Assembly: GCA_963768055.1 (NCBI GenBank)
Contig: CAVYGN010000002.1
Span: forward strand, 448,001 to 512,000
Reading direction: 5' to 3'
DNA: 64,000 nt
Source: an uncultured Spirochaetota bacterium
Lineage (GTDB): Bacteria; Spirochaetota; Brevinematia; Brevinematales; JAOACQ01
Below the pieces are notes generated by a model. That model searched no databases, was not told the origin of the DNA, and saw only the letters and a list, made by a program, of their open reading frames with translations. The position numbers and the translations under genes are program-made. Every line of letters starts with the position of its first letter. The stretch's first letter is position 1. Shown in pieces: positions 13,459 to 55,690 of the stretch.

Positions 13459-15117
13459 ATGGATAATCACTCGCTTAAAAGACAGTTGATGGGACTGTCT
13501 TCGTTTAAAAGCCTGAGTAAAAGGATAGTCCTTTTAATTTTTGGGGTTTATATAATCCTGTCTCTAGTAATTGCGGTCACTTTTATTGTCTATAACCGGA
13601 TTCAAGACCATTCGCCGCTTCTTTCTATTGCTCTTATCATAACAGAAATTGTTCTTGGCAGCGCTGTTTTAATCGCTGCGATGCTGAAAATCCTGCGGGA
13701 TAAGATCTGGCACCCGCTCTCAAGCCTGAACGATGCCATTATCAGCATTTCAAATAAAAACCTTTACGCCAGGGCCAACCATTACAATCCTGTGGGCGAA
13801 ATGGCGATTTTATATAGAAATTTCAACCAGATGGCTGACACGCTTAAAAATTTTATCGAGGAATCGTCCTCGGTAATCTGGACCGACATAATAACAAATC
13901 TTCCCAACCGCGACAGGATCCTGATCGATATTGAAAGGACTGAAAAACCATCGCTTATACTCGCCAATATCGACTTCTTTAAAGAGATTAACGATTGCTA
14001 CGGTAATAAGATCGGGGACCTGATCCTTAAAGAGACGTCCCACCGTCTTAAAAAGATGCAGGAAGAACTTGATTACCGCCTTTACAGGATGCCTGCCGAC
14101 GAATTCGCTCTCCTATTCGACTGTGACATCTGCCGTGAAAGCCTGATAGATATCGTCAAGCTTCTTTCAAATATCATAAACGAACGGCCTTTCATTATGA
14201 ACGGGCATGAGATCAACGTCAGGGTGACTTTCGGAATTGCGCTTGGCGACGATATATGTAATGATGAGATCACAGAGGGTAAATGGAGAAAACTTGCAAC
14301 TAATGCGGATATGGCCTTGAAACGCGCAAAAAGGCTGCAAAAAAATTTCATAATTTTCGATGAATCCATGGAGATCACAAAAGAATACGAAAATAATATC
14401 ATGTGGAAACAAAAACTCAAGGACGCCATCCATAATCAGAGGATAATACCGTTTTTCCAGCCGATAGTTAATAATTTTAACGGGAAAATTGAAAAGTACG
14501 AAACCCTCGTACGCCTCATTGACAAGCAGGGAACCATTATCCATCCCAATAACTTCCTGGACCTGGCCAAAAAATCACATCTTTACGATAATATTACAAA
14601 AGCTATGATTACAGGATCCTTCGCTATGTTTGAGAATCTTAACTATGAATTTTCAATAAACCTGACAGTCAATGATATTCTTGACGAGGATATCAATAAA
14701 TTCATCAAGGATGAATTGAAGAAAAATAAAAATACTGCAGGCCGCGTAGTTTTTGAAATTCTCGAATCGGAGGGAATTGAGAATTACAAGGAAGTCATGG
14801 TATTTATTGAAGAAGTCAAAGATCTCGGGTGCAAGATAGCCATCGATGATTTCGGTTCCGGTTATTCCAACTTCGAGCATATAATGAGACTCGATGTCGA
14901 TTACATCAAGATCGATTCCTCTTTGATTAAAAACCTTCCATATGATAAAAACTCTCAGATTATTACCAGGACCATAGTAAACTTTGCAAAGGAACTCGAG
15001 CTGAAAACCATATCCGAGTATGTACATTCCCGCGAAGTATATGAAAAAGGCGTCGAACTTGGCGTCGATTACTCCCAGGGGTTTTATTTCGGCGAGCCGA
15101 AGGAGTTTCTGGTTTAG
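13459..15117 (+). CDS. Membrane HAMP-GGDEF(degenerate)-EAL c-di-GMP phosphodiesterase
   Basis: 2 TM + HAMP; GGDEF replaced by PADEF; EAL variant ETL with FQP, IDDFGSGYSN, KID, SE, SQGF. Confidence 0.9.
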   Translation: MDNHSLKRQLMGLSSFKSLSKRIVLLIFGVYIILSLVIAVTFIVYNRIQDHSPLLSIALIITEIVLGSAVLIAAMLKILRDKIWHPLSSLNDAIISISNKNLYARANHYNPVGEMAILYRNFNQMADTLKNFIEESSSVIWTDIITNLPNRDRILIDIERTEKPSLILANIDFFKEINDCYGNKIGDLILKETSHRLKKMQEELDYRLYRMPADEFALLFDCDICRESLIDIVKLLSNIINERPFIMNGHEINVRVTFGIALGDDICNDEITEGKWRKLATNADMALKRAKRLQKNFIIFDESMEITKEYENNIMWKQKLKDAIHNQRIIPFFQPIVNNFNGKIEKYETLVRLIDKQGTIIHPNNFLDLAKKSHLYDNITKAMITGSFAMFENLNYEFSINLTVNDILDEDINKFIKDELKKNKNTAGRVVFEILESEGIENYKEVMVFIEEVKDLGCKIAIDDFGSGYSNFEHIMRLDVDYIKIDSSLIKNLPYDKNSQIITRTIVNFAKELELKTISEYVHSREVYEKGVELGVDYSQGFYFGEPKEFLV

Positions 15118-15395
15118 GGCCGTTCAAACAACATACTAACTTCTTTATGAAACAATTTTTTTATCGAGCGGGACTCGAATGCTTGAGCTGCAACGGCTCA
15201 AAACAGCAACAAGCGTTGATGGAATTTTTTTTTAATGAAAGAATATTTTTATTATTTATATTAATATAGAAATAGAATAAGCGGTCCCTGAAAAACACTT
15301 GCTTTCGCTGTTTTTCGCCGGCAGCTCCGACGTATTCTTCGTAAGGCTCGCTAAAAAAATTGTTTCCTAATAAATTGTATATTGTCTTGAATTCG
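15116..15395. repeat. Long self-complementary element E1
   Basis: Arms GAAACAATTTTTTTA (15149-15163) / TAAAAAAATTGTTTC (15352-15366), plus CGAGC/GCTCG, GAGCTGC/GCAGCTC, AAAACAGC/GCTGTTTT; AT-rich loop. Confidence 0.75.
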
Positions 15396-15450
15396 AGGAT
15401 GGACCGGGTCACAACTTCATTTTAAACCAACAGAAAAACGGTGATCGGCT

Positions 15451-15482
15451 AGTCTGCAGTCAATAGTTAGCAGTCGACAGTC
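15451..15482. repeat. Heptamer tandem micro-array (AGTnnnn)
   Basis: AGTCTGC AGTCAAT AGTTAGC AGTCGAC AGTC. Confidence 0.7.
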
Positions 15483-15490
15483 CCTTTCCT

Positions 15491-15706
15491 GCCGAATTAA
15501 GACAATATGCGGCTCTATTTGAAGTAATTTTTTTCTGCGCTCTTATGAAGATGGCGTAGAGCCACCGGGCGAAAAACGGATAAAGGAAGCGCTTACATCC
15601 ATTTTGAGCCCTTGTGGCTCATACCCTTCGGGCACAGGCGCTATCGAATACCGCGTAGAAAAAAATTACTTCAAAGATAAAACTGCATATTGATCTGGTC
15701 GGCCCT
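15491..15706. repeat. Long self-complementary element E2, inverted homologue of E1 (possible structured ncRNA or MITE-like element)
   Basis: 23-nt arms 15518-15540 / 15653-15675 pair with one G-T; CAATATGCGG/CTGCATATTG; GATGGCG/CGCTATC; GAGCCAC/GTGGCTC; side hairpin CC-TTCG-GG. Confidence 0.8.
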
Positions 15707-15726
15707 CCATAAATAGCCTCCTTTTC

Positions 15727-15755
15727 TTGACAAAACGGCCCCTTTTCCTTAAAAT
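15727..15755 (+). promoter_or_regulatory. sigma70 promoter of the rpsF operon
   Basis: TTGACA-17 bp-TAAAAT. Confidence 0.8.
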
Positions 15756-15760
15756 TTCTT

Positions 15761-15837
15761 GCTATCCTTCCTGCCGAAAGGCAGGCGTGTCCCGGAAAGC
15801 AGGGCTTTCCGGGACAATTAGTCCATAAGGAGGAGAA
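15761..15837 (+). promoter_or_regulatory. Structured rpsF leader (candidate S6:S18 autoregulatory RNA)
   Basis: CCTGCC-GAAA-GGCAGG hairpin, 13-bp perfect stem 15788-15816, and TCCTT able to pair with the AAGGA Shine-Dalgarno. Confidence 0.5.
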
Positions 15838-16128
15838 ATGATAAGGAAGTATGAGATCGCTTTTCTCATCAAAGAAGGCGAGATCGCCAAAGCAGCGATC
15901 GAAAGGATCCACGAGTATTTCAAAAAGATCAAAGCCGGCGTCGTTAATGAAAGCGATATGGGAACCCGCCAGCTTGCATACCCTATCCATCGCAACCGGG
16001 AAGATTTTAGAAGGGCGTATTACCACATTGCTAAAATCGAAATGGACACAAAAAATATCCCGGAATTCGAGCGCCTGATGAAATTCGACGAAGATATCAT
16101 TCGCCACATGCTCCTGACCGGAGAATAA
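15838..16128 (+). CDS. rpsF: 30S ribosomal protein S6
   Basis: RKYEIAFLI, GTRQLAYPI, IIRHML; position before ssb. Confidence 0.93.
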   Translation: MIRKYEIAFLIKEGEIAKAAIERIHEYFKKIKAGVVNESDMGTRQLAYPIHRNREDFRRAYYHIAKIEMDTKNIPEFERLMKFDEDIIRHMLLTGE

Positions 16129-55635: not shown

Positions 55636-55661
55636 TAATCGGGAATTTTAGATACTTAGTA

Positions 55662-55690
55662 TGTCATTTCTCGCTCCGCTCGAAATGACA
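55662..55690. repeat. REP-like palindrome
   Basis: TGTCATTTC-TCGCTCCGCTC-GAAATGACA, 9-bp perfect stem. Confidence 0.6.

Follow-up and report, generated by a model that had tools for sequence, protein, structure and literature searches.

Two long self-complementary elements, E1 (15116-15395, + strand) and E2 (15491-15706, - strand), lie between an EAL-domain gene and rpsF in a 64,000-nucleotide stretch of the genome of an uncultured Spirochaetota bacterium of the order Brevinematales (assembly GCA_963768055.1, contig CAVYGN010000002.1, positions 448,001 to 512,000; hereafter the window). We consider them likely to be two copies that belong to different subfamilies of a non-coding, lineage-restricted family of foldback MITEs (miniature transposable elements with inverted repeats) of the ERIC/Correia type. 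This long-hairpin family is a small palindromic intergenic repeat of a known class, not a new RNA gene, and is a previously undescribed family within that class. Coordinates given without a genome label refer to the window; G000 is the window's own genome (3.69 Mb, two contigs C1 and C2, 94.75% complete), G001 to G004 are four congeners, and G009 is a genome from a second genus of the same taxonomic family.

Two copies of a dispersed long-hairpin family

An earlier note on this DNA had described E1 and E2 as colinear hairpins, and it placed both of them correctly. E1 (15110-15400, +) folds into a single long hairpin with a minimum free energy of -81 kcal/mol (z = -4.9) and E2 (15485-15712, -) reaches -93.2 kcal/mol (z = -8.7), with none of 200 shuffles equalling it for either element. 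A repeat search recovered the inverted arms as well (I1, 25 nt at 92%; I2, 23 nt at 96%), together with the E1-to-E2 cross matches I3-I5. E1 is colinear with the reverse complement of E2 and identical to it at 128 of 197 aligned positions (65%). When the arm-to-arm pairs of E1 were mapped on E2, 39 were unchanged, 10 had changed on both sides and still paired, 6 had changed on one side and still paired, 17 were lost and 5 were gapped, so that the compensatory changes reported between the two elements are real. The note was also right that E1 begins in the TAG stop of the upstream gene, whose open reading frame (ORF; 13459-15117, +, from the ORF list) ends as ...GGTTTAG/GGCCG with the stop at 15115-15117 overlapping the first bases of E1, and that E2 carries a C(TTCG)G side hairpin, CCCTTCGGG at 15624-15632. 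It did not mention the non-palindromic tails, the internal deletion of E2 and its origin in another subfamily, or the genome-wide anchoring at stop codons.

Family copies in G000 were collected with BLAST and iterated nhmmer, a copy being called full when it covered 240 or more of the model's 275 positions. The 131 nhmmer matches resolve into 68 non-overlapping loci, of which 35, spread over both contigs, are near full length; the others comprise lone arms, shortened variants and fragments. The family is old: any two of the 35 full copies have a median identity of 0.66, with a maximum of 0.95. The two arms within a copy are on average 79% complementary. The unit consists of an imperfect hairpin of about 275 nt, with two arms of about 100 nt and an AT-rich apex, followed by a non-palindromic tail of 30-65 nt. 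At the termini, GCCGTTCAAACA... pairs with ...TGTTTTGAA(TC)CGGC, with helix 1 of the consensus 73% paired, and the pairing spans the whole length. Past the right arm most copies continue into the tail RGGAAAGGAC..., often followed by a partial inner right-arm motif, TTTTTCGATGGCAG. No ORF is conserved across the copies: on reading the alignment, ATG-led frames end within about 3-12 codons in most subfamilies.

Within this family E1, assigned by its fold and by nhmmer, is the best match to the model (positions 1-275), and its closest copy is G000:C2:1282302-1282593 at 82% identity. E2, assigned by fold, nhmmer and alignment, matches model positions 1-103 and 175-273, an 83-nt apical part being deleted. 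It is identical at 192 of 212 positions to G000:C1:146153-146446 and at 179 of 195 to G000:C1:123003-123277, both of which keep the apical part. Because E2 is closer to these copies on the other contig and lacks their 83-nt apex, its sequence identifies it as an internally deleted member of a subfamily other than that of E1. The side hairpin sits inside a 17-nt insertion in the left arm of E2 (insertion region 15620-15643, -, by alignment, with C(TTCG)G reading on the + strand), which is common to G000:C1:146153-146446 and recurs with few differences in G000:C1:828898-829195.

The hairpin is kept by compensatory substitutions and is under selection in its single-stranded form. An 80-pair consensus hairpin was built from the folds of individual copies and scored on the alignment of the 35 copies: 82.2% of its cells pair, against 73.6% in column shuffles (none of 500 reached the observed value) and 36-46% when the partners were slid by 1-3 columns, in agreement with the note's view that structure is conserved over sequence. 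Double changes occur at 52 of the 80 pairs, in 270 cells against 98 expected, counts that overstate the number of independent events since the structure was derived from the same sequences and the copies share ancestry. Several consensus pairs show three or four different Watson-Crick types, and RNAalifold, run independently, gave double changes at 16 of its 23 pairs. The asymmetries between the arms are conserved across subfamilies, which argues against a fresh inverted duplication having founded each subfamily. In the inner core the A run and the T run around a GC stem are nearly invariant columns (A84-A87 and T195-T199), so that the core reads A4, GC-rich stem, T5 on either strand; the apical region that it encloses measures about 70-90 nt in the copies and 15 nt in E2.

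The mismatches of the hairpin do not distinguish its strands. The 35 full copies show no wobble asymmetry, with 104 G.T against 122 A.C arm-to-arm transition mismatches (p = 0.26), and the impression that the mismatches of E2 are mostly G-T on the + strand failed in its own fold as well, where there are 3 A.C and 2 G.U. A folding-based count of 126 G.U against 44 A.C was set aside as biased, since the folder counts G.U as a pair. A scan of Rfam at E <= 10, a check that the note had proposed, gave chance matches only. The best were precursors of plant miRNAs, which scored 23-25 bits where the gathering scores are 140-195, as a generic long hairpin would. Literature searches on Brevinematales repeats, spirochete MITEs and stop-codon repeats found no description of the long-hairpin family, which is uncatalogued, and no closer precedent for it.

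Placement at gene ends and distribution among relatives

With gene positions taken from crude ORF-based calls, the 5′ end of the element adjoins the stop codon of an upstream gene in the same orientation much more often than expected by chance. It faces such a stop in 22 of the 35 full copies, all three stop codons occurring, and among these 22 it falls within ±5 nt of the stop in 14 and within -18 to +3 nt in 18, while uniform placement in the present spacers gives a mean of 1.3 stop-adjacent copies. Twelve of the 35 copies have a stop facing their 3′ end, always at a distance of at least 29 nt, the gap being filled by the tail and by pieces of a second repeat family described below. In co-directional spacers 13 copies are in sense and 3 in antisense orientation, and nine of the full copies lie between convergent genes. 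The 5′ end faces the start of a divergent gene in 13 copies; five of these have an outward sigma-70-like promoter at that end, with the -35 box starting 0-12 nt from the element, and none of the 22 stop-facing copies has one. The left flanks had looked richer in TTGAC by eye, and the stricter promoter scan supports only those five copies. Taken together, the element tends to occupy the space up to the nearest functional signal. No fixed target word was found 5′ of the element in 57 left flanks, and the 35 copies have no replication-orientation bias (14 leading and 21 lagging, the GC skew being weak). Of the 1372 spacers of G000 that lie 3′ of genes and measure 40 nt or more, 165 (12%) gave a canonical intrinsic-terminator-like site in a simple scan.

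Relatives were searched with a sequence-only model of the left arm, which was needed to find copies, BLAST of E1 against 40 relatives having returned only pieces of 27-57 nt. The arm model matched in G001 (7), G002 (13), G003 (12) and G009 (6), that is, diverged copies occur in three of the four congeners and in one other genus, whereas it gave no match in the other 7 genomes of the same taxonomic family or in 23 genomes from the order's other families. In the relatives' loci, matches to the family model extend up to model positions 8-271, and in 6 of 16 relative copies an ORF ends within 25 nt of the predicted 5′ end. The further copies for which the earlier note had proposed a search are present both in the genome itself and in its relatives.

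Presence and absence of the element are polymorphic between species at orthologous sites. The EAL-rpsF spacers of G001 (about 120 nt) and G004 (about 290 nt), the two congeners in which rpsF is preceded by an EAL gene, contain unrelated sequence without a family match, and the EAL protein in congeners without the element has a C-terminus of the same length (..EFLV-stop, ..EFLL-stop or ..EFIL-stop). A G001 copy (locus L094) lies between a stop (AAATAA-C) and an intact intrinsic terminator; the matching G000 site is empty and reads TAA-C-AAAAAAACCCCGCC..., with the same C-terminus length. The G000 sites that correspond to the G001/G002 copies L088, L093, L094 and L098 lack the element, and the copy at G000:C1:1013084 is missing in all four congeners, the convergent genes nearly abutting there. 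The empty-site orthologues that the earlier note proposed to look for were found; the target-site duplications were not, the mean flank match being 2.97 nt against 3.11 nt in shuffles, with 2 of 35 copies reaching at least 5 nt and the true 3′ boundary, beyond the tail, uncertain. The filled and empty pair at the L094 site likewise shows no target duplication.

One site is shared more widely. After a gene whose product ends in ..DCEWDPY-stop, the element directly follows the stop codon in G000, G001 and G003, and only a canonical terminator is present there in G002 and G004. Identity among these copies is only 50-55%, and 11-18 pairs have changed on both sides between them without loss of pairing; their folds remain strong (z = -10.3 and -6.3). 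The G000 copy at this site is 83% identical to its nearest G000 copy and 55% to the G001 orthologue, and the site could reflect either retention in place under selection or repeated replacement.

In G003, the loci L090, L095, L099 and L104 (G003:C3:528998-539403 and others) consist of the conserved inner core (about model positions 35-260) within units of about 345 nt. These have different outer arms, with several copies within about 10 kb, and more weak G003 matches cluster at G003:C3:586447-602509.

Mobility, function and rival explanations

Under the reading that we favour, a MITE-like foldback repeat, the element would be copied as DNA by an enzyme encoded elsewhere and would survive only where it lies between a stop codon and whichever functional signal comes next, be it a terminator or a -35 box. 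Judging from its position alone, it would probably be co-transcribed as the 3′ untranslated region (UTR) of the upstream gene. There, the imperfect RNA duplex of about 100 bp would act as a 3′-end barrier, a terminator-like element or an RNase III site, which we think is the most likely reason for selection on the hairpin; the same fold may be needed for mobilisation too. A terminator-like or barrier role is suggested because the inner core of A run, GC stem and T run reads on both strands, and because species that lack the element have a canonical terminator in the corresponding position. Against the terminator-like role are the large apical region, the absence of any canonical intrinsic terminator (GC-rich stem, loop of 3-8 nt, T run) in a scan of 14900-15950, and the L094 copy, which coexists with a terminator.

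The family has most of the features of a MITE: it is short (under about 600 bp) and non-coding, it has many dispersed copies and terminal inverted repeats, and it varies in presence at orthologous sites. The exceptions are an autonomous parent insertion sequence (IS) with matching ends and a target duplication. The search for a parent covered DDE_Tnp_1 and Y1 transposases; G000 has three DDE_Tnp_1 IS families, with 2-3 copies each, and their ends are unrelated to the element. A locus at which family ends stand 1.6 kb apart, G000:C1:472002-473625, was tried as a parent and rejected, for it holds two lipoprotein-like paralogues and chimeric repeat pieces and no transposase. A comparison of E1 and its tail with plasmids and phages (blastn, distant mode) gave no match.

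A number of observations weigh against this reading. No autonomous parent was found, neither among the DDE ends nor as a Y1 transposase, and within G000 there is no direct sign of mobility, target duplications having been sought and not found. Even the two youngest copies share only 95% identity. A function purely of the sense-strand RNA predicts an excess of G.U over A.C on that strand, which is not seen (104 vs 122), and the apical region of about 70-90 nt means that the inner stem is not a canonical intrinsic terminator. The stop adjacency may in part follow from the native spacers being very short, something that the uniform null ignores. Terminators are not fewer in element-bearing spacers (10 of 32, against 165 of 1372), a comparison that is uninformative as those spacers are longer. 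Finally, gene conversion or repeated insertion, rather than retention, could account for the shared site after the ..DCEWDPY gene.

The alternative that deserves most attention, which we regard as possible though rather unlikely, is that the element is a host-selected RNA hairpin anchored at stop codons in 3′ UTRs, its A4/GC stem/T5 core forming a terminator or RNase III gate that is portable and bidirectional, and its copies being kept because each sets the 3′ end or the stability of neighbouring mRNAs. The occupation of the ..DCEWDPY site in three species fits this, given that the hairpin has persisted there through 11-18 double changes at 50-55% identity and that two species without the element have a canonical terminator exactly at that place. 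The nearly invariant A/T runs around the inner stem, the position of 9 of the 35 full copies between convergent genes and the low proportion (12%) of 3′ spacers with a canonical terminator-like site point the same way, and the missing wobble asymmetry is what a fold needed on both strands would give. However, an apical region of some 70-90 nt is far above that of known intrinsic terminators, none of which was found by the scan, and the L094 element of G001 stands upstream of an intact terminator, so that it has not replaced it. Moreover, a single shared orthologous site has to be set against the absence of the element at the G000 sites for L088, L093, L094 and L098, and the 13 copies whose 5′ end faces a divergent gene start cannot be the 3′ UTR of that gene. 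If the hairpin were instead an independently transcribed structured RNA, the product of a family of trans-acting non-coding RNA genes, its covariation-supported structure and the lack of an Rfam family would be as observed; yet a promoter scan of E1 and E2 found no strong promoter of their own, the only promoter-like site (9 of 12 matches, inside E1) being at chance level, and no terminator of their own is present. There are also 68 loci at a median identity of 66%, the placement is fixed at gene ends, and internally deleted and one-arm copies persist, all of which makes such genes very improbable. The earlier proposal of an unannotated structured RNA family stands in so far as the structure is conserved and the family uncatalogued; a stand-alone gene is not supported, an own promoter, a canonical terminator and wobble asymmetry all being missing.

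The same note had offered a MITE-, REPIN- or attC-like substrate, and only the first of these names fits, in view of the 68 loci, the presence/absence variation and the lack of coding capacity. A REPIN-like single-stranded DNA hairpin, acted on by a RAYT or IS200/IS605-type Y1 transposase and conserved only for recognition by that enzyme, would explain the inverted doublet architecture, the lone arms, some of which stand beside full copies (G000:C2:181957-182057 by 182060-182344, and 601150-601251 by 601253-601526), the missing wobble asymmetry, and the lack of a target duplication, as Y1 transposition would give none. It is nevertheless improbable: PF01797, the Y1/RAYT transposase domain, has no match in the 94.75% complete genome, while 6 of 14 control genomes were positive; the arms measure about 100 nt rather than 20-40 nt, with no conserved GTAG-type head or 5′ tetranucleotide; and there is no orientation bias relative to the GC skew (14 leading, 21 lagging). 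An attC-like recombination site of gene cassettes is suggested by the 5′ end at stop codons and by the imperfect palindrome with bulges, since attC sites of gene cassettes also begin right after the cassette's stop codon. Such sites are 57-141 nt long and have R''/R' cores RYYYAAC ... GTTRRRY, whereas the present element has about 275 nt and its ends, GCCGTTCAAAC ... GTTTTGAATCCGGC, do not fit those cores by eye. As the best match to the integron integrase model TIGR02249 has 87.8 bits against a cut-off of 265, and the copies are dispersed on both contigs beside housekeeping genes instead of being arrayed, we give this idea hardly any credence. The note's fallback, a local inverted duplication that has decayed and exists in the EAL-rpsF spacer alone, has only the adjacency of E1 and E2 in its favour and is refuted by copy number, with 66 further loci in the genome and with E2 about 91-92% identical to copies on the other contig but 65% to E1.

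Among known repeats, the closest kinds are the MITE-like repeats that are palindromic over their whole length (ERIC/IRU and bcr1) together with the Correia elements, while REP/BIME come closest in modular arrangement; the family lacks the defining features of REPIN/RAYT and attC. Like the ERIC/IRU elements (about 127 bp), it is a dispersed, intergenic, imperfect palindrome whose copies diverge and yet keep the fold, but its length is double, its AT-rich apex is large, it carries a non-palindromic tail, and it shows no sequence relation, its host being a spirochaete and Rfam giving no match. ERIC-type elements are reported to have TA flanks and a target duplication (Delihas 2011, PMC3184786), neither of which was found here. 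According to the same review, many repeats of this sort are located where genes end and are transcribed together with them, and a downstream ERIC can affect mRNA decay (PMC3184786). The bcr1 repeat of the Bacillus cereus group (about 155 bp) is likewise a transcribed dispersed repeat with compensatory changes that keep the duplex and a strain-variable distribution, but it has 5-bp flanking direct repeats, none of which was found here, and is unrelated in size and sequence (PMC3184786). The pneumococcal SPRITE, a Rho-independent-terminator-like repeat of about 105 bp, shares a terminator-like fold (PMC3184786), represented here by the A run, GC stem and T run of the core, but the apex of the long-hairpin family is about 70-90 nt and the canonical terminator scan was negative. 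Correia elements (CREE, Neisseria) are non-autonomous MITEs of 100-160 bp with no known parent, placed at gene boundaries and varying in presence among close relatives (PMC3184786). Only their ends are inverted repeats, whereas the long-hairpin family pairs over its whole length and shows no target duplication. Correia elements use a TA target and contain an IHF site. REP, BIME and REPIN resemble the family in that their palindromic units occur singly, as inverted doublets and as mosaics, often near stop codons (Nunvar 2010, PMC2817692). They differ in that REPs have 20-40 nt, a GTAG-type head and a cognate Y1, whereas here the arms are of about 100 nt, with no conserved head and no PF01797 gene. 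Liang, Rudd and Deutscher reportedly found in 2015 that REPs within 15 nt of stop codons have a role in translation.

The long-hairpin family is a deep example of a foldback repeat with a selected hairpin, extending over two genera and over identities from 95% to about 50%, with one site occupied in three species. It is therefore a good system for asking whether such repeats persist by moving or by shaping mRNA 3′ ends, a question that is still open for the ERIC, REP and Correia elements. MITEs have been reported as abundant in Spirochaetes in a 2024 MITE census (PMC11602168), and the present family adds to them a structurally well-defined case with no known mobilising enzyme.

The EAL-rpsF spacer and neighbouring repeats

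In the window the two units stand tail to tail, the E1 hairpin and its tail running to about 15426 and the E2 tail (15427-15490, -) joining the E2 hairpin at 15491. The tail of E1 (15396-15426, +; boundaries approximate, by-eye comparison), a non-palindromic 3′ extension beginning AGGATGGACCGGGT..., resembles the RGGAAAGGAC(T/G)GGG tail that follows most copies, as judged by eye from the right flanks of 39 copies. The tail of E2, delimited by comparison with homologous tails at G000:C1:1307826 and G000:C2:182059, consists of GGCAGGAAAGGGAC, five heptads of AGTCNNN type (15451-15485 on the + strand) and CACCGTTTTTCTGTTGG, which is a partial copy of the inner right-arm motif. A pattern search gave 3 overlapping matches in the heptads against 0.16 expected, and Tandem Repeats Finder scored nothing there. 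In other places, comparable runs of heptads (AGTCTGC AGTCATC..., GAAGTGC GAGGTGC...) border copies of the second repeat family.

That second palindromic family has the ends TGTCATTTCGAGGA...TCCTCGAAATGACA and an inner GACGAGAAATCTTCC motif. It occurs in the window at about 55660-55690 (-) and elsewhere in the genome, for instance at G000:C2:732493 and G000:C1:1543880-1543940, the word GTCATTTCGAG being present 59 times. Its copies often follow directly after long-hairpin tails, and one occupies the site of a G002 long-hairpin copy. Chimeric units made of a long-hairpin left arm, half of the second repeat and the long-hairpin right terminus and tail are found at G000:C1:472002-473700, upstream of each of two paralogous genes for small membrane/lipoprotein-like proteins (222 and 197 aa). 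In a further arrangement, of one and a half units, a single arm of about 100 nt abuts a full copy (G000:C2:181957-182344, C2:601150-601526, C1:876668-877041 and C2:273966-274360), and the junction is always at the same point, the left-arm end after ...AAGCGCTG(G/A).

Of the roughly 610 bases that separate the EAL stop from the rpsF -35 box, about 590 derive from the repeats, and in annotation they should not be taken as a regulatory RNA belonging to the EAL gene or to rpsF, whose promoter and leader are native. The promoter, TTGACA-17-TAAAAT (15727-15755, +; 11 of 12 matches in the promoter scan), lies outside the repeat, the outer end of E2 being 20 nt upstream of its -35 box, and is conserved in all four congeners. 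In the rpsF leader (15756-15837, +), where Rfam gave only a weak chance match to SAM-VI, a short hairpin, CCTGCCGAAAGGCAGG at 15769-15784, sits between the conserved blocks TTGCTATCCTTCC and TTAGTCCATAAGGAGG. This hairpin changes on both sides among five congeners (CCTCCCCTCAGGGGAGG, CCTGCTACTACGCAGG, CCTGCCCAAAGGCAGG) and may be a ribosomal-protein autoregulatory leader.

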